Source: Neophaeotheca triangularis
Lineage: Eukaryota
Length of the DNA stretch: 64,000 bases
Assembly (NCBI GenBank): GCA_054600435.1
Contig: BAAIJX010000013.1
Location: 310,001-374,000, forward strand
Reading direction: 5' to 3'
Positions within the stretch are counted from its first letter, which is position 1. Each line of letters opens with the position of its first letter. The notes under the pieces are model-generated. The model was not told the origin of the DNA. It was given only the letters and a program-made list of their open reading frames with translations, and searched no databases. Positions 12,377-23,792 of the stretch are shown piece after piece. The position numbers and the translations under genes were made by a program.

Positions 12377-14757
12377 ATGCCTCGCGAACACAAGAAACGC
12401 GGTCGTCGCGGCGAGGGCTCCAAAAAGCGTAAGCTTGAAGAACAAGACGGCTTCGAAGAGGCCGACCCTCAACTCCAAACCACCACCGATGGCACAAGTA
12501 AGCGCCGCAAGGCGTCGGATCCCGCCGTGAATGATGAGGATGGGCAAGAAGCTTCCTACCTCGCCCTCCCCGACGACTCGCTGGATGCAGCCTACCCTCA
12601 CCCACCCATGCCTGGTCCTGGAGAAACGCCCTTTTTCGGTCTGCTAGATGAAAGCGAACAGGAGTACTTCTCGCGGGCCAACGAGATGCTCGAGGCTAAT
12701 GCTTTTGCCGAGTCTGAGGAGAGGGAGCTTTTCGTCGAAAATGTGTGGAAGGAGGCCAAGGGCAAGGAGTTGAAGATTGCTTGTTCGCAGTCTTGTTCGA
12801 GGTTGATGGAGAGGTTAATCGCCTCGAGTGGGCCTGAGCAGATCAAGGGTCTGTGGAGGGGTTTGGAGGGCAAGTAAGTCATTACCATCTCACGGACACA
12901 CGTGAATGCAGTTGACGGAGCTGGCAGAGGCCGCTCTGCATTTTGGCGTTTCGGAGCGAGTTTGCTGACTGTACTGCCAGCTTCGTGCACCTCATGGGCC
13001 ATCGATTCGCCTCGCATTGTTGCGAATCTCTATTTCTAAAAGCTGCACCTCATGTCAGCGACGAAGTGGTCTCCGGACAGCAGAAAGCCTCAATGAAGGA
13101 CCAGGACCCCGACGAGATCTACGTGTCCATGGAAAATCTGTTCTTGCACACGCTTGCCGAGTTGGAGGGAAACGTTGGATATCTGATGATGGATCGATTC
13201 GCATCACACCCATTGAGAGTGCTGCTGTTGGTTTTTTCGGGCGCGCCTCTAGATTCGACCTCTACAAAGCGCGTTCTAGCGAGCAAGAGGAAGGAAGGCA
13301 TCACGGCCAACGGGACCAACAAAGCGAACGATGAAGAAGAGAAGTCCTCGAAACGACCAATCCCAGACTCCTTCTCGGAGGCGCTTGACAAACTCATCTC
13401 TGCTAGCGTGGCTGGTCTCGACACCGACAAGCTCCGCGCCCTTGCGACACATCCGATTGGCAACCCGACACTTCAGCTACTGCTCCAACTCGAGCTTTCG
13501 CATTTTGGCAAAGACCGGGCAAAGGATGAGAATTCCGTCATCAAAACTCTGCTTCCCGACGATCCGATTACCGCCGAAAGTAGCACGGCTGCCTTCATCA
13601 ACGGCCTCATCTACGACCCGATTGGCTCCCATCTCGTGGAGAAGATCATCGAGAACGCGCCGGGAAAGTTGTTCAAAAACCTCTACCGCACCTTTTTCAA
13701 GGAGCGTATTGCATCCTTTGCACGAAACGAGATTGCACAGTACGTGGTAATTGGCATCTTGGAGCGTTTGAGCAGGCCGGATCTGCTCGAGGCGCACGAA
13801 TTGCTCGCTCCCACCATCCCAGCGCTGCTCGAGAGGAACAGAACGGCTATTGTTAGAACCTTGATCGAACGCTGCGTGGTCAGGGATGTGGACACAAAGT
13901 CAATCGCTGCGGCAATAGACTCAACATATCATGGCCCGGAAGGGTTTGAGATTAGGAGGTTGTTGAAGGTGGAGGAGGCCCCCACCACTAACGGTGATGG
14001 CCCAAGTCACAACCCTACCACAAACGGCGTCCATGAAGCCGCCGATCCTTCTCACCACTTCCAACGCGAGAGCCAGCCTGTAAAGGTGCAGTTCAACCTT
14101 TTAGCGCAATCGATGCTCCTCGTCCCCGGCTCCCTGAGCGCTTTAATACTCGACTCCATCATCACAATCCCGACCTCCAGCCTTCTTTCCCTCGCAACCG
14201 ACCCGATAGCCACACGCACACTGCAAGCCGCTCTGACGACTCGCAACGCCTCCATCATCAACGTCCGTAAACTACTCAACCCTTTCCGTGGCCATTTCGC
14301 TGCTCTGGCAACTTCGACAGCCGGCAGCCACGTCGTCGACTGTGCCTGGGAGGGCACGCACGGGCTCGCGTTCTTGCGTGAGAGGATTGCAGAGGAGCTT
14401 GCAGAGGCCGAGGCCGAGCTAAGGGAAAGTTCATGTGGTAGAGCAGTTTGGCGGAACTGGAAAATGGACATGTACAAACGACGACGCGGCGACTGGGTCA
14501 AGCAGAGTCAGAACAAGGCTAGTAACGATGGCTTTCAGAGTTTTGAAGAGGTGGAGGGAGGCGCTGGCGGCAATGGCCGTGGCAATGCAGGAGAGGGTGT
14601 CAAGAAGACTCCTCTGCAGGCTGCACGGGAAAGACATGCTAGGAATAAAGCAGCCAAGGAGAAAGATAGTAAAGGACAGGCCAAGGCTCAGGCTAAGGAG
14701 GCTACGGGGAGTAACGGCACTGCTCTGGGGCCGAAGACGGGGACGGTGACTTCTTAG
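12377..14757 (+). CDS. NOP9: Nucleolar protein 9 (Pumilio-like repeat, 40S biogenesis)
   Basis: Exons 12377-12873 and 12981-14757, intron 12874-12980. [11 protein letters not shown] start; [50 protein letters not shown] and [17 protein letters not shown] motifs. Confidence 0.93.
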
Positions 14758-15314
14758 GGTTTGTCAAATGTTGAGAGATGGAAGCCCTCAGGAGAGTCAC
14801 TTGTCCTGGCAGAGCATGCGTCGAAAGCACAAACAACTTGAACAGAAGCGCAGCCAAAGTGCTTGCTTGCTCGTTCCCAGGCGTCTGGGAGCAAACAGCG
14901 ATGCCCCGGGGGCAGCAGTTTGCAGGATCGCGGCTATAGCATCGCATCGTCATGTCAAGTGAGATACAGCCTACGGACCTGAGCATCTCGACCGTGACTT
15001 TTTTGCAATAAGGATTCCGCTAAGAGTCGCCTGAAATTTAGGCGAGTTTGGCTCATCGCTTACACTCGGCCCAGTGACTCGACCAGACAACTTGTCTGAT
15101 GTCTCTTTTGTACGATATATAATAACAAAGCAGTGGAAGTTTTGTGTGGATACGGCATACTAGTGATGATGAATCTCGTAGACTCTTAGTTCACATTGTC
15201 CCCACTCGCGTTTGCCCCTCATCTTCAGAATTCATCTGGCGGGGTCCTTAATGATCAATAATAATAATTGATCTCTCCTACTCATTACATTCACACTTTC
15301 TAGATTGCTCAATT

Positions 15315-17076
15315 ATGTCTACCAACGGTACCTCTGCAGAAGGTCAATCGAAGCCTTTGAACCGGGCAGACGTTGTCGACGATGTAAGATGCACCGACTA
15401 AGTATCCATCAACTTACCGTCTCCGCCTCATATCGACCCGACCGCATACTAACCACGACCCTGTCCATATCCAGCTCGTCACCTCCGTCCAGCAACTGCT
15501 AATCCCTTTCATCCGCCGCGCAGACGAAGATGCCGCTGTCAAACACACCTCCCACGGCCTTCAGATCCCCGGCGCCGCGCCCCGCTCCGTCCTCGTCGAA
15601 CACCACCCGCCGCAGAAACTCGACTCGATCCTCGCAGCCGCCATTGCGCCCCTTGACGACCTCACGACCGTCGAACCCCAGGGCAAACCCGGCCTCCTCG
15701 CCGCCATAGAGCAGGTGCTCCACCACAGCGTCAACACCTGGGACCAGGGCTTCCTGGACAAACTCTACGCGGCGACGACACCCACGGGCGTCGTCGCCGA
15801 CCTCGTCCTCAGCGTCCTCAACACCAACCTCCACGTCTACCAGGTCTCGCCCGCGCTGACGGTGATTGAAAAACGCACTTCGAAAGCGCTGGCGCACATG
15901 TTTGGGTTGCGGGACAAGTGGTCCGGCGGCGTAAGTCAACCCGGTGGCAGCGCCGCGAACCAGATGGCCATGGTTGTAGCGAGGAACAACTTGTTCCCGG
16001 AGACCAAGAGCGAGGGACTAGGGGCCAGGAAGTTTGTGCTCTTCACTTCCGCGCACGGACATTACAGCTTGGAGAAGGCGGCGCAGATTATGGGTTTTGG
16101 AAGCGGGGCTGTCAAGACGGTCGCCGTGGACGACAAGGGGTGCATGAAGGTTTCTGCGCTGCGGGAGGGCATCCGCAAGAGCCGCGAGCAAGGGGAGACG
16201 CCCTTCTTCGTCAACGCAACCGCGGGCACGACGGTGCTGGGCTCCTACGACCCGCTCGAGGACATCGCTGCTATTTGCAAGGAGGAAAACGTCTGGATGC
16301 ACGTCGACGGCTCGTGGGGCGCTCCCGCCATCTTCTCCCGCCAACAAGCACACAAACTCCGCGGCTCCCACCTCGCCGACAGCATCGCGCTGTGTCCGCA
16401 CAAGATGATGGGCGTGCCTTGCACCTGCACTTTCCTGCTGGGCAAAGACATGCGCAAATTCCACGCCGGCATGACCTTGCCCGCCGGCTACCTCTTCCAC
16501 AACCCGGGCGACGAAGACGCAGATAACGATGCCGTAGCCTCCGAGCAAAGCGTCGACAACTCAGCCCTCGACGCCGCCAACCCTTCCGCCCACCCCAACA
16601 GCGAAGCCGACCACGGCCGCGAAGTCTGGGATCTCGCAGACCTAACCCCACAATGCGGCCGCCGCGGCGACAGTCTCAAACTCGCCCTCAGCTGGATCTA
16701 CCAGGGCACCGTCGGTTTCGAAAACTACATCAACAAAGGCTTCACCGCGGCTTCCCATCTCGCAAGCCTCGTCCAATCCCACCCTTCCATGACGCTAGTG
16801 TCGCAAAACCCGCCTCCTTGCTTGCAAGTCTGTTTCTACTACGGCGAGCAAATCGGGGAACAAGGGGGTGCGGGGAGGCGGAACAGGATTTCCAAAGTTA
16901 CCGAGGAAGTCAGTAAGGCGTTGATGGTTCGGGGGTTCATGATTGATTACGCGCCTGGTGAGGAGGGCAAGTTTTTCAGGGTCGTCGTTAATGGGCAGAC
17001 GGAGCTGGGGACTGTGGAGGGTTTGGTCAAGGCGGTGGCGGAGGTTGGCGAGGGGGTTGTGGGGAGGCTTAGATGA
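15315..17076 (+). CDS. Group II PLP-dependent decarboxylase (GAD/CSAD-like)
   Basis: Exons 15315-15383 and 15475-17076, intron 15384-15474. Motifs PGGSAAN, HGHYSLEKAA, NATAGTTVLGSYD, WMHVDGSWG, CPHKMM (PLP Lys) and QCGRRGDSLKL. Confidence 0.9.
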
Positions 17077-17696
17077 AGGCTTGAGCGGTTCGTGTACGCT
17101 GTGTCGGCTTGTACATAGATGATAGATGGGATCTGGAAGTGCGAATGCAATGGCATGACCTTTTCCCGCTGCTGTCTGTCGTCCCATCTGCCCAAGACTA
17201 CAGCGGACGTCTTTTTTGATAAGTGCGACAGCATACGCCGCCTTTTGCTAGTACATACGACATTACCGCCCGTTATGGTGGATATTCCCGCCTCTCCCAC
17301 TCTCTGCTATTCCCTCCCTCGCGCCCTGCCAGCGGCCGCTTTTGTCAGCTTGATCTCCAACACTGCTGCATGTTCGTCCCAACTAACTCTATCCGTCTAT
17401 TTCTACCCCTGAAGCCTCGTCCGCTAGCCTGTTCAGGCCCTCCCAAAGCTTTCAGCATTTGCTCTCACTCTATGAGCCTTTGTAATATAGACCTACTATA
17501 TATAAGTTAACTCCTACCTTACTCGATATCCATAAAAACAAAGATTCCCCCAAAGGTCCGTCACAAAACGATTAAAACGATTGCTCGAAAGCACCTCGTT
17601 TTAACACTCGAGAGCCGATTGCTTTCGTCGGCAAAAATGCAACGTGTTGTACGGTTGCTTCGCGGGAGTAAAAAATAGAACCAAAAAAAAAAAAGA

Positions 17697-17815
17697 ACAT
17701 ACAACAGGTGGGATTCCCACGTGGTCACCCACCGTAGTACTAGTCACCCGCTTCAGTGCTTGAATATGGCAGAGCGGACGGGATGCCTTAGATTCACTGA
17801 GCTGTGGTCGTATGT
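17697..17815 (-). rRNA. 5S rRNA gene, copy A
   Basis: 119 nt, ACATACGACC...CCCGTCCGCTC...GTTGTATGT, matching filamentous-ascomycete 5S termini. All helices can pair, a T-run Pol III terminator follows, and there is a TATA-like element about 25 nt upstream. Confidence 0.95.
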
Positions 17816-18349
17816 GAAGGACTTGATTGGCAATACGTATATAAATAGATACAAAATTTCTTAGGGAAGGGCGACGAATGTTTACTCCCATGTTTCGGCC
17901 GTAGTCCTCGCTCTTAAATATGTTAGACCTCATTAGGGTATTCTAGAGGAGGTCTCCCGCGCAGAGTGAAGAAGACGTCGTACGGGATAAGAACGGGGAA
18001 ATAAGAAGGCTGATCCTAGAGGCTTGCCCTCCTTCACATACTCTGCTCGACGATGCGAGTACTCCGCCGGATGCTAGAGACAGCTTCGCGGCTCCTCGTG
18101 CTGGCTGGCCTATGCGTGCCGTTCAGGGTGAAGACGAGACTGCGACGCTAGCACCTTATCCTGTTCAGGGTCAAGGGGAGACTGCTGCGCTGGCTGCAAC
18201 GAGGACGTGTGACGATCGAAACCGGGCAGTCTAGTACGGACTATGTTACACATTCTTAGCGCTTTAGTTGTCTGCGGACAGTGACATTTTCGATCTGAAT
18301 CCGCAGCAGTGTTGGACGAAACTCGGTGCATCGCTCGAAATGCGCCTTT

Positions 18350-18871
18350 TTACGCATCATTCTTGGGAACGTCCTCCCATCGCTCATAGAACTCTCCACC
18401 GAGCATCTCGATCGCCCTGCACCTCTCATCCATTGTCAGTGCATTCTTGATCCGTCCAACACCCAGTCTTGCCCCTCTTAATTCGTCATCGAGCCGCAAT
18501 GCCCACACCCCGCCACTGGACGGCCACCCGTACCATAGACTTGAGACCCAGGGAATTTCCAAGGTGCTTGTGAATACATTTTCGTCTTTCAAAAAGTGCG
18601 CACCTATACGCTCCAGGCGCCGACAGAACTCGTCTTCTTCTGGCGACCATCTTTGGGTGGGAGTCAGCTCGAACCGAGAGAGGTTCAAGAACTCGAGCTC
18701 GATTCCAGAGCATCTGTCGTGAATCCATACGCCACCAGTTGTGGGCCAGCCGCATACGAAGGTTCCAACATCGTTGAATTTCGTCCGCGTGGCCTCTAGA
18801 GGCTGGTCGAACACTCCTCCTGGGGGACACGATTCGCTTTCGTCGCTATCCAGGTCGATGACTTCGGACAT
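18350..18871 (-). CDS. Uncharacterised 173-aa protein with two GWPxxGGVW repeats
   Basis: ATG at 18871 (MSEVIDLDS). Repeats GWPTTGGVW...EEDEFCRRLERIGAHF and GWPSSGGVW...MDERCRAIEMLGGEFY. The internal duplication argues for a real protein. Confidence 0.7.
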   Translation of the reverse strand: MSEVIDLDSDESESCPPGGVFDQPLEATRTKFNDVGTFVCGWPTTGGVWIHDRCSGIELEFLNLSRFELTPTQRWSPEEDEFCRRLERIGAHFLKDENVFTSTLEIPWVSSLWYGWPSSGGVWALRLDDELRGARLGVGRIKNALTMDERCRAIEMLGGEFYERWEDVPKNDA

Positions 18872-19181
18872 GTTTGCGTTCCGAGTGTAGAATTGGTATA
18901 TGTGATTCAGTCCTGAGATTCTAGCGCCGTATAGAATACCGCCTAGCTTGTATAGCTCCGATTCGTAAGGTAGACGGTGGTAATGACAACCGCTAGGGCA
19001 ACGGTGCACTTTTTTATGGTAGGAAAGTACGAGTTGTTAGCCGGCTGCATACGGGAGATCGCGCGAGCTAAGGTTGATACTCATCAGAATCGAAGTATCT
19101 TGACCGAGAATATCGCTGGGTATGCTTAACGAGAAGTGAAACTTTTGTAGAATTATATTCGCATTGCCAATCAAGTCCTTC

Positions 19182-19300
19182 ACATACGACCACAGCTCAG
19201 TGAATCTAAGGCATCCCGTCCGCTCTGCCATATTCAAGCACTGAAGCGGGTGACTAGTACTACGGTGGGTGACCACGTGGGAATCCCACCTGTTGTATGT
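19182..19300 (+). rRNA. 5S rRNA gene, copy B (identical to copy A)
   Basis: Base-by-base identical to the reverse complement of 17697-17815. T-run follows; TTATATT about 25 nt upstream. Confidence 0.95.
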
Positions 19301-19862
19301 TTTTTTTTTCTTTTTGGTTTCAATTTTTCTCTCTTAACTCTTTCTTGATTTCGTCGCATTTGAAACACAGTCGCGTAAGTAGCATAGGCCTTTGCTATTT
19401 GGCGATTCAGAAGGAAAGGGGGGCTTGTTTTTGCCGTCATCGAGGCCGATGTGTAGACACAACGTGGCTGTGAGAGTTGATTAGGGTTGAAGTTCGGGGT
19501 GTTTTGATTTCAAGGTAATGGACCTCTTGAGTGATGGTTTGTTGTTCCGCAGTGTCAAGTAGAAGGTCTGAGCTGTTTAGATGTACACTGCAGGCGCCCC
19601 AGTCCTTGCTGATTAGACGACATAGCTTGAAAGGTTTGAGACGTTCAAAGAGTCCTAGCTCTAGTAGCAATTCCGGTAGAACTACTATCTATATTAGCTG
19701 GCAGGAGAGAGCGGCTTAAGAGACAAAGTAGAAGGCTCTCACGTTATCTCGCTGAATTCTCTGCTCTCTTATGCTGCTTACGTATTTCGCTGTGAGAACC
19801 GTGACTCTTGAAACAAAACCCCCAGGTCTAGCAACACTAAAGCTTAAAGCCGACCTCTCCTC

Positions 19863-22291
19863 CTACTCGCCCCCTTTAACCCGACCGCTACCGAAAACTT
19901 TACCCCCAAGCCCCCACCAAAACCTCCTCGTCTCCCAAAGCGGCAACACGACACTGATACCCGTCGACGCAAACACCCAAACGAAAGAAATGACGATCCA
20001 GGCGGTGAAGAAGCCCGGGCTGAAAATGTAATGGGAGAGGAAGAGAGGGATGGGGAGCTTAAAAAAAAAACGCAAGTCAGCATGAGGCTCGTCGTGTCTG
20101 TGCGGGAAATTTGGAATGGGCACTCACGAGAAAGTCCATGATGAAGGTTAGTACGAAGGCGGCGATGCAGGCGACGTAGAAGGCTCTGCGGAGTTTGGCC
20201 GGTTCTTCTTCCAATTTGGCGTCGGCTTGGGCTTCGCGGTCAGGTGAGGGGTCGGTGTGGTGGGGATTGGGTGTGGTGAGGGTTGGGTCGTGTTGCGGTG
20301 TCATGGTCACGTTGTGATTCTTTTCCTTCGCCTCGTCGCTGATTGCAACGGCTCCTGCTGCCTCTGCGGCTGTGGTTTTTGTGATGCTATCGCTAGAGCC
20401 CTGTCTCTCACCTTGGATTTCCGTGCTGGTTTCCAGCGGCTTCGCGTTGATGGCTCGAGTGATTTCCCAGTCGAAGTTTTGCGGTTTAAGCAGCGAGACG
20501 ATCATTGTGACGATGAAACCAGTCAGGACGGCTGCTAGATTGCCCGCTAGAGTCGCATACTCGTGCCCGGTACTGGCTATGGTGATCTCGCCAAAATGCA
20601 CCTTTGCGGTCACCAACCACGCTGTCAGGCCTGCTGCTAGACCGCAAAGAGCGCCGGAAATGGCTCCCGCTTTCGACTGCTTGTCCCAGAGAATTGCGAA
20701 TGCGCAGGGGAAGACTGCTCCCCCTATCAGCAGCCCCATGACCAGGAACAGCCAGCCCAGATCAATGCCGGCGACGTTCCAAATGCAGGCGAAGACGCTC
20801 ATTGCCACGCCGAAAATGCAGATGCAGACGTGGCTGACGAAGATGAGACGTTGGGGCGTTGCTGCCGGGTGGATGTAGGCTTTGTAGACGTCGAAGGTGA
20901 GGATTGAGCTGACGGCTATGAGCTCTGCTGAGGCGCATGATGTGACGGCCAGGAAGAGCGAGATGAGCAGAGCTACGGCACCGCTCGTGCCTAAGAGCGT
21001 AGTGGCTGCATAGGCGGATGCTAGACCGGCGGAGATGTCGCTGGCTGGTGGTTGATCGGGATAGGTAGGGAAACGAGGGTTGTTGGTCAAGGCTACAGCG
21101 GAAAGACCGAGGGTAGTGGCGAAGCCAAAGGGGATGGCGAACCAGGCTATGCCGCCGAGTATGTAGGCTTTCACGGCGGTCGTTGGACGAGAGGCAATGG
21201 CTCTCTGGTGGTACGCCTGGTCAAGGAATACGGTCCCCGAACCTGAGCAGAGCTGTATCACGCCGAATATAAGCGCGAAGTTGGATTTTAACGTCGTGTA
21301 GGAGCCGTCCTTGTTGCCGGCAACGGGGCGTTGGACCGCAGCTTCTTGCAGTAGCTCGTACATTGCCGAGGGGCTACCGATTAAGGGGCTCGTAGTGTAG
21401 GCGTTGAAGAGGAAGTACATGATGATGATCATGAGAGCGACTGTGTGAGTGTAGTCGCACAGGAACGTTGCCCGTAGACCGCCGAGCACGACGTAGGCAC
21501 AGACGCCAGTTGCTATGTCTTGTGTTAGCTTCCATGTGCCACCTAGGGATAGCGGTTTGAGACGTACGAATCAAGAAGATGGCAGCATAGACATTCATCC
21601 CAGTCAGGGACGTCACGACTGCGCTTCCACCGAGCAATAGCTGACTTCCCACTAGTATATTCGTGACCTGCCGAGACCAATTGTTAAGTCCAGCCCATAG
21701 TGATAAGGTCCGCTGCACTTACGAGCGCAAATCCCAGGAAGACTATGTGGGCTTGCCTGCCATATCGGGCGTAAATGATCTCTGGCGTCGCCTGTCAGCA
21801 TAATGTCTCGACCAAATTGACCAGCCATTACCAGCTCAAAGCAATCCATGCCACTCACCAAGATACGTATGACACCTCGGCGCATTCATCTTAATCTTAC
21901 AAGCCAAGATGCTGAACATTAGAATCTGCACCGTAGCACCCGCCGCGTACCAAAAAGGCCCCGCAACACCATAGAGGTAAGCAACAGTGGAAGACTGCAG
22001 CAGCGTAGCGGCCCAAGTCCAGGCGGAGACGATGCCGGCGGCGATCAGACCCGGTTTCACGCTACGGCTGGCGGTGTTGAACTCTTCGCTTTGCTTGGTG
22101 TCGAAGCGCGTATACTTGTTTTGTAGGTAGGAGAGGCCCATCATGAGGATGGCGAAGGCGAAGCCTATACCGACCTGGGTGGGTGGTTTAGCCTTTATTT
22201 GGAGGTGGAATGGGTCGTGGGATGTATGCGGACTTACTACTACGCCGTAGCCTACCCCTTGTGAGAGGACGGTTTCTGGGTTGCTAGACAT
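19863..22291 (-). CDS. DUR3: Urea active transporter (sodium:solute symporter family)
   Basis: Exons 22291-22238, 22174-21859, 21781-21723, 21667-21568, 21512-20128, 20057-19863 splice in frame. Motifs LSQGVGYGVVVG, EEFNTASRSVKPGLIA, SAWTWAATLLQSS, GGLRATFLCDYTHT and GTVFLDQAYHQRAIA. Confidence 0.93.
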
Positions 22292-23792
22292 ATTGAATTG
22301 TCCCAAATGCAGAGGAGGAGACAAGGCCGACAAACACAGAGTGAGAAAGAGGGCACCTCCTACCGGTATATACCTCAAGACAACTTCAACGGTTATCTTG
22401 AAGGTCACAACGGACCGCCAATCGCGACCCACGCTCTCCGAACTAGATCAACATGTGGAAAGCTGCTATCGTTGCCTGGAAGCTAATATCAACGGGGCCA
22501 TGAGAGGCGTGAGAGAGTCCCGATAGCAGAGTCGCAAAGGCCGGCGGCGAGTTGTAATAAGCAGGACGACATCAAACCCCGTGAGCCAGCTCTTTTACCC
22601 GAACAGGGAGGTCGAAGAGCCACCTACTCCCGTCAGAGTCAACAGCGATGTCGGTCTGCTGCGACGATCATTGCTGGCAGTACGACTGATGATAGTCTTG
22701 ATGCCTTTATCTCTGCTTATCATCTACCATGCATATCGCCAAGGAGATACGCGATGGAGGTGGATACAATACCTCCATTTTCGTGTCATAAAGGCCGTTA
22801 CCAGTACCTCCGGGCTATGCCGGGGTAGTTTCGCGGTTGGGGTTACCTCCTACATGGTATTCTTGGTTCCGCTGGTGCCGCCCTGATACGAGCATCCCAG
22901 GGGCTCCTCCCATGCAGGTGTGGGTGTTGCTGTGTCACTGGGAAGGCTACTCCTTGCGATACTAACGTCCCGCTCGAGGATCGGTAGCCGTAGAGATGTG
23001 CTGGTGGCTCTTTGCCCTGTCCAATACCGTCCTGATCCATTGCATTGAGGTGATAAAACTTGAAAGGCTTCAGTCGTCTCAGCGAGGTCTGCGTCGGTCG
23101 ATACTCTAGACAGCCGACAATCGGAAGCACGAGATCAACGGTGGCTGGAGGACGCGAGAAGAAGAAGTGTATCACTGCCATTTAGAACTCGAAGGGAACA
23201 ATGATAGTAGACCCGTCGGTGTCTTTACACTCTAAGAGCGGAAAGCCATCTCAAACCCCGACCCTAGAAGATCAGCCGGCGGTGCAACAATGCACAGACA
23301 CCATATAAAAGCTCGTCCCGTGAATGAGTACAGTAGCAAGTAAAACCCCGTTTGCATCCGCAAGAAAAGAAAGACTCAGTCAATTAGCCAAGATTTGAGG
23401 TTTAAAACCCGGCAGGTAAATGCTGCAAAGATCAAGGCAAACCAACGACAGCAGCAGCCTTATCAAAGCAAGCTAGGAGACAGATGTTCAGAGGCTGGGC
23501 CAGGCGTGGCCTGACATCTTCTTAAAAAAGAATTAATCAAGAATGGACTGTCCACATCTCATTCAGTACTATAAACAGCTGTACAATAAACACGGCCTTC
23601 TCTTCGCCATCGCATTTCAAGCAAAGCGAGTAGAAGTTAAGACCAAAACCCCCCTTGCCAAACCGGCCATGCCCTAACGGCGAAACCCTCGCACACACGC
23701 CAAACACCCGCACGCCACCCATGCACGCAAAATAAAAACACGCAATCTCTTCATCCAAATCACCCGCTCTCTTTTCCCCTCACTCCCGGCAG

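Follow-up and report, generated by a model that had tools for sequence, protein, structure and literature searches.

Dispersed 5S rRNA genes of filamentous ascomycetes are reportedly under birth-and-death turnover, as described by Rooney and Ward in 2005. The 5S genes of the genome considered here fit this picture in that there are dozens of scattered, near-identical copies, accompanied by pseudogenes and surrounded by mostly unrelated flanks. They differ from it in that many copies share 100-460 bp of flank and form close, mostly inverted pairs, which indicates DNA-level copying beside existing copies. Two other kinds of system have to be kept in mind when two identical genes face away from each other: segments that flip, such as yeast 2-micron Flp/FRT and the mating-type inversion in methylotrophic yeasts, and Pol III genes with barrier activity, which are known in yeasts.

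Close parallels exist in fission yeast. There, wtf genes have spread via dispersed 5S genes, many of them being flanked by direct repeats and the family as a whole being 5S-linked (PMC9562144), and an inversion in the centromeres is proposed to have arisen between 5S genes (10.1101/2022.12.06.519325). The wtf and FSAR/CenA repeats resemble our locus in that a small variable gene lies between two dispersed 5S genes and is present in some strains and absent from others, and 5S-mediated ectopic recombination is the feature of these systems to which we liken it (same sources). In contrast to the direct 5S repeats of the wtf type, the repeats described here are inverted and outward-facing; also in contrast to wtf, neither the paralog of our open reading frame (ORF) on contig C106 nor its homologs at 28 of 28 loci lie near a 5S gene, with the proviso that the homologs are distant and 14 of the loci short. 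Finally, Starships of the Arwing, Voyager and Enterprise families insert inside 5S genes (PMC11162782). In a search of titles and abstract openings, with most subscription papers outside it, none of those listed dealt with inverted pairs of 5S genes in filamentous fungi.

The window analysed here is a 64-kb stretch, C13:310001-374000 of a 25.4-Mb fungal assembly. Our reading of it, which we regard as likely, is that DNA-level templated copying brought two sister 5S genes together and that ectopic pairing then converted one to the other.

The 5S pair and its sister module

Rfam recognises only two RNA genes in the 64-kb window, both of them RF00001. The left one lies on the minus strand at 17697-17815 (RF00001 match 17696-17815) and the right one on the plus strand at 19182-19300 (match 19182-19301); each is intact, scores 85.8 bits against a gathering score of 38, covers positions 1-120 of the model in full and has a TATA-like box and a T-run, which in the left copy follows the gene. 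The two genes are identical over 119 nt, and the exact match adds 19 nt upstream and 1 nt downstream, so that exact identity between the arms amounts to 139 bp in total. The earlier note was thus right that two identical, outward-facing 5S genes are present. Its claim of a looser likeness of the flanks stands in part: without gaps an inverted repeat extends over 179 nt at 94% (17666-17844 / 19153-19331), and with gaps the likeness reaches upstream to about -45 (84% over 44 nt) and downstream to about 35-40 nt past the 3' end, but some of it is generic, a T-run being common to all 5S starts of this genome and a TATA-like box near -25 to -30 to most of them.

Between the genes lies a spacer of 1366 bp (17816-19181). 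The left neighbour is the 3' part of a PLP-dependent decarboxylase gene (15898-17076, plus strand; PF00282, E=1.8e-59), and the right neighbour is a gene for a sodium:solute symporter (SSF; 20077-22291, minus strand; PF00474), which we take to be DUR3-like. Within the spacer, 18121-18194 contains a direct repeat, its two 32-nt copies 42 nt apart and 81% alike; a small local duplication is the probable origin.

In the whole assembly RF00001 gives at least 34 matches, at least 27 of them over the cut-off and at least 25 uninterrupted. Eight other copies are identical to those of the window over 119 nt, hence the identity of the coding part is by itself uninformative. The upstream match of 19 nt is a different matter, since it is unique to the window pair; in none of the other 37 among the 39 distinct 5S starts does the match exceed 3 nt. 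This rules out that the pairing is a coincidence produced by flanks common throughout the genome. Close spacing is far from random: 11 of the 25 intact copies lie at most 1.5 kb from another (0.12 pairs are expected for 45 random loci), and the close pairs comprise four outward (C13, C1, C42 and C26), one inward (C15) and one direct (C1). Furthermore, the upstream flank is common to another locus at a score of at least 100 for 17 of the 39 starts, against a background of 741 pairs with a median of 18 and a 95th percentile of 27. Flank sharing being this common, 5S genes in this genome multiply as DNA blocks. Duplication can extend even to whole pairs, and between their members a third module can settle, as follows from the outward pair on C42 (L069), which is homologous to the outer two copies of a triple on C1 (L068), flanks within the spacer included (80% over 285 nt and 77% over 313 nt); the middle copy of the triple looks like a later arrival.

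Two further features of the 5S complement may be recorded here. The C67 start (L051) has a near upstream flank like that of one C15 copy and a far upstream flank like that of the other (L071). There is also a divergent, full-length type (L061, L062, L063, L023, L020 and L060), 80-87% identical to the window's genes, with equally good Rfam scores, which means that the genome has more than one 5S type.

The left 5S gene belongs to a module of 465 bp (17488-17952), consisting of the gene, about 210 bp of downstream and about 140 bp of upstream flank, and this module has a twin in a lone 5S locus at C1:1123425-1123892. The two are 85% identical over 479 columns, in the same orientation and with both flanks in the same order (upstream 88% over 129 nt, downstream 76% over 195 nt). 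The idea of DNA-level duplication, which the earlier note drew from the shared flanks, is therefore well founded, both in this 465-bp block and in the 17 of 39 starts mentioned above. Inspection of the module's ends revealed no target-site duplication, and since the likeness to C1 runs about 200 bp into the outer flank of the left arm, the end of the arm is not the end of an element. The right 5S unit (19137-19340, plus strand) is like the left/C1 type only between about -45 and a point about 40 nt beyond the gene, and its further flanks have no other match in the genome searches.

Upstream of the gene the left arm switches its nearest relative. Beyond -45 it follows C1 alone; at -1 to -19 and in the gene it equals the right arm, and here the C1 sister departs from both, at -1 to -10 and in a single base of the gene. 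Such a switch is typical of gene conversion between neighbours, and the 19 nt at 17816-17834 (minus strand; equal to 19163-19181) would be the upstream part of the converted tract. The right arm is also like C1 at -11 to -45, which makes it equally possible that one arm arose from the other by local inverted duplication. We also considered repeat-induced point mutation (RIP) behind the left/C1 divergence, which is not clear given the mixed spectrum: of 9 T/C differences with T in the window, 5 stand before A.

The interval in a second strain

Four read sets were compared, of which X1 is the probable source run of the assembly and X2 is a second strain with the same organism label; neither X3 (share 0.07, at low depth) nor X4 (share 0.00) yielded synteny. 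The X1 contigs covering 14500-17694, 17805-19192 and 19280-23000 have no differences from the window and even depths (128, 132 and 126), and the contig of the spacer reaches 11 nt into the 5' end of 5S at both ends. One joint in X1, 17818->19182, might be taken for a deletion of the spacer; we find it better explained by the spacer contig of the C42 pair, whose left copy has exactly 3 upstream nt in common with that of the window.

X2 is colinear with the window through the decarboxylase gene, with 32 differences over 14500-17067 (2568 nt). Its depth is about 110x in the conserved parts, and in the variable interval two forms stand at about 62-65x, a pattern which is that of a diploid, a heterokaryon or a mixed sample. 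Contig 11 is colinear over 17958-19216 with 50 differences in 1259 nt, preceded by 199 and followed by 172 unlike letters; it still contains the ORF, then enters the right 5S gene at its 5' end and leaves it at 19216, exactly at nt 35. Contig 10 passes from 208 unlike letters into 17958-18202, then through 3079 other letters into 19628-19748, and has neither the ORF nor the right 5S gene. Both contigs begin to match at 17958, and the likeness to C1 ends at 17952; given that these points are within 6 nt of each other, the inner flank of the left module is not beside the spacer in X2. These X2 results come from the contig pieces listed, another 246 pieces being left out, and the absence of the module is read from the linked contigs, the zero depth at 17672-17858 being a hole.

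The earlier note had suggested comparing the interval between decarboxylase and transporter in relatives, and the X2 contigs answer that it is variable between strains. An empty-site comparison of the wtf type, made with X2 only, gives one form in which the ORF and the right 5S gene are present but the left module is not, and another that has different DNA, hence three structural haplotypes across two samples. The left module, the ORF and the right 5S gene thus do not vary as one unit. Contig 10, by linking 17958-18202 to 19628-19748, also places the spacer of X2 in the same orientation as in the window.

Taken with the sister on C1, the following course of events would account for the pair. 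Modules of 5S plus flank, copied at the DNA level as is common in this genome, may have given rise to two sisters of one sub-lineage 1.37 kb apart. The left block was perhaps gained beside an older right-hand 5S gene by templated, repair-type copying, or else lost in X2. The neighbours would then have paired ectopically, and gene conversion would have removed all differences between them in the gene and in the 19 bases upstream of it. As for the ORF, this scheme makes it presumably a bystander: a paralog from a widespread family, frameshifted and present in some haplotypes but not in others. It is important to note that the divergence between the left module and C1 (85% identity, the gene included) is larger than that between X1 and X2, which amounts to 32 differences in 2568 nt and to 50 in 1259 nt. 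The block is therefore not simply explained as having come from C1 recently; one has to suppose that the polymorphism is old, that the donor has been lost or that X2 has lost the block.

If this reading is right, the pair as a cassette is unimportant, a by-product of 5S gene turnover. What makes the locus useful is that it is a worked example of how dispersed fungal 5S genes multiply with their flanks by DNA-level copying and are homogenised by local conversion, and that it marks the surroundings of such genes as hotspots of structural variation between strains.

Inserts at nucleotide 35 of 5S genes

In our opinion the inserts found inside other 5S genes merit more attention than the 5S pair does. 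At 14 of 45 distinct 5S starts, one of which is an internal deletion, the 5S sequence is left right after nt 35; another 13 starts flagged by the same break test break elsewhere or are merely divergent. The direct repeats listed for Starships, (T)CCCGTC(C), match 5S nt 33-40, that is, the break site of these 14 starts and of the right copy in X2 (PMC11162782). In one family of inserts, 156-206 bp long, 5 of 5 copies lie within a 5S gene right after nt 35 (C9, C66, C27, C5 and C60; L022, L026, L024, L025 and L046), with nt 36-40 of the gene missing and an opening hairpin of about -29 to -34 kcal/mol. Many inserts at nt 35 open with a strong hairpin and the larger ones carry gene-like DNA; further ones (L044:1284-4695, L045:1132-1392 and L047-L052) measure 43 bp to 3.4 kb where both ends are seen, and most start with GCA. 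The inserts on C35 and C45 have their left end in common, with 27 nt inverted, and the one on C35 carries a DUF6594 gene. A split 5S gene on C41 (L043:4346-6934) encloses 2.47 kb which open with an 80% copy of window positions 17033-17249 (plus strand), the end of the decarboxylase gene and its 3' flank; this insert also holds a small gene, to which there is paralogous DNA on C124, C31 and C3. Here, host DNA from near one 5S locus is found inside another.

It is tempting to go one step further and to regard dispersed 5S genes as landing pads, beside or into which modules and accessory DNA are preferentially copied, with a captain-less family of inserts using nt 35 and the window as a snapshot of one hotspot. 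We put this forward tentatively, as an idea somewhat less likely than not. In such a scheme the resulting inverted pairs might convert each other, sometimes be duplicated whole and occasionally cross over, and hairpin-led inserts of 43 bp-3.4 kb, some of them with captured host DNA such as the end of the decarboxylase gene, would interrupt about one third of the 5S starts via the Starship target at nt 35. If true, it would explain both the dispersal of 5S genes and the coming and going of small accessory genes, and would make the nt-35 inserts small, non-autonomous elements that exploit the Starship target. There are differences from Starships: the 5S genes of the window are whole and inverted, unlike the two halves of a single split target gene, directly oriented and marked by a short direct repeat, and the inserts are small in comparison with the tens of kb of the Starships listed (PMC11162782). 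The spacer encodes no tyrosine recombinase captain (DUF3435), its sole sizeable ORF being without a Pfam match, and a genome-wide search with PF11917 (DUF3435), run without a positive control, gave 0 matches.

In L047, L049 and L050, 5S nt 36-42 seem to resume after the first hairpin, followed by a second insert, hinting at a second insertion target near nt 42-43.

The enclosed gene and other explanations of the pair

The spacer holds an ORF of 173 aa (18350-18871, minus strand), which corresponds to the core domain of a large uncharacterised protein family and is a truncated, possibly decaying allele. A search of the organism's own genome with the single protein finds a paralog at C106:6243-6737, 72% identical and with a dN/dS of 0.17 over 171 codons; this paralog reads as a single frame of 238 aa whose N-terminal part includes a hydrophobic stretch. 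In the window that stretch is encoded by a separate frame of 35 codons (18943-19050, minus strand), which starts at an ATG homologous to the start of the paralog, is out of frame with the core ORF and ends in a stop; the window gene is thus frameshifted relative to the paralog. The allele of another strain differs at 4 of 173 residues and carries the residue of the paralog at 4 of 4, which suggests relaxed selection on the window's allele. By analogy with the anchor of the paralog, the product may be a small membrane-tethered protein of which the window allele lacks the anchor.

This gene is by no means the orphan it had been taken for. A first homolog search gave 11 matches, the named ones from Cercospora, Oleoguttula, Recurvomyces and Colletotrichum, and a profile search raised the number to 948 representatives at E<=1e-3, the named matches being Pezizomycotina. 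The question raised in the earlier note, whether homologs sit beside 5S genes, receives a negative answer: there is no 5S gene in 36,000 of the 36,074 bases of the contig with the C106 paralog, and none at 28 of 28 loci of homologs in metagenomes, these homologs being distant (29-54% identical) and the loci measuring 6.7-10.6 kb in 14 cases and 1.0-5.7 kb in the other 14.

How well do other explanations of the pair survive? That the spacer is an invertible segment, flipped by recombination between the 139-bp arms so that both orientations coexist, seems improbable to us. The arms are indeed inverted and perfectly identical, which likens the locus to flip-flop systems, the conversion-like tract shows that they pair, and an identity of 139 bp could host a rare crossover. 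Moreover, a copy at C1:605740 (L068:5541-6059) has the upstream flank of the left C26 copy (86% over 175 nt) and the downstream flank of the right one (86% over 166 nt; L070). This recombinant of the flanks of a pair shows that copies of this kind do cross over. Its arrangement is the one expected from a flip of the C26 spacer, but recombination between copies at other places would have the same result. Against a flip in the window stands, first of all, the left gene, which carries both flanks of its sister in cis; this is the parental arrangement, and a single flip would have broken it. Genome searches found no copy joining the left upstream flank to the right downstream flank. One orientation is supported in two strains, X2 keeping that of the window, and no strand-change joint at the locus is among those listed in the four runs, although contigs drop rare forms and cannot show them. 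Flip-flop systems differ further in having a recombinase and longer arms than the 139 bp identical here: no recombinase family was found in the 27 of 28 long window frames that were scanned, a trans-acting one being possible. Since the ORF and its upstream region lie wholly inside the spacer, a flip would also change no junction between promoter and gene. Nothing points to a programmed switch, and the evidence suggests a spacer in parental orientation.

Equally little credence can be given, in our opinion, to a mobile accessory cassette in which 5S genes carried the ORF in as a unit, be it wtf-like or a relic of a 5S-targeting Starship. It is true that the ORF and the right 5S gene are missing from one X2 haplotype, where 3079 other letters stand between 18202 and 19628, that many insertions at nt 35, some with gene-like cargo, occur in the genome and that the C42 pair and the outer C1 copies demonstrate duplication of whole pairs. 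However, both 5S genes of the window are full length and inverted, the outer flank of the left arm stays C1-like for about 200 bp with no element end, the ORF occurs in one X2 haplotype that lacks the left module, and the paralog as well as 28 of 28 homolog loci are without 5S. As regards a terminal-inverted-repeat transposon or MITE, the genome has no second copy of the spacer unit and there is no duplication at the ends of the module. The proposal of an invertible or mobile 5S cassette, made in the earlier note, is accordingly not borne out by the parental flanks on the left, the unchanged orientation in X2, the 5S-free homolog loci and the recombinase search.

Could selection maintain the pair because the two Pol III genes insulate a small gene or form barriers around it? 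Both 5S genes are intact, with a TATA-like box and a T-run, as such a role would have it, but the gene they enclose is frameshifted, the other strain's allele has the residue of the paralog at all 4 differing positions, the arrangement is not kept in X2 and no other pair has a spacer with an ORF longer than 71 aa, so we think this very unlikely. An assembly artefact, with the spacer joined to wrong flanks through the 5S repeat, is hardly credible: the identity of 139 bp does exceed the word length used in building contigs and no listed piece spans an arm, but the X1 spacer contig enters the 5' end of 5S by 11 nt on both sides at even depth, X2 joins the spacer to the right flank without passing 5S, and the sister on C1 supports the left join.

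The protein itself matched nothing familiar: 0 of 114 family members have a Pfam match at E<=1e-3, the 173-aa protein has no sequence match in the PDB, and fold searches gave 0 Foldseek matches at E<=1e-3, a best Z of 2.9 in a wide search and no usable Atlas hit; such blank searches show neither a new fold nor a function. The structure model has a pLDDT of 89, and the sequence contains two GWP-x-x-GG-V-W motifs. With 948 representatives, no Pfam model and this repeated motif, the family is a candidate for a new family description.
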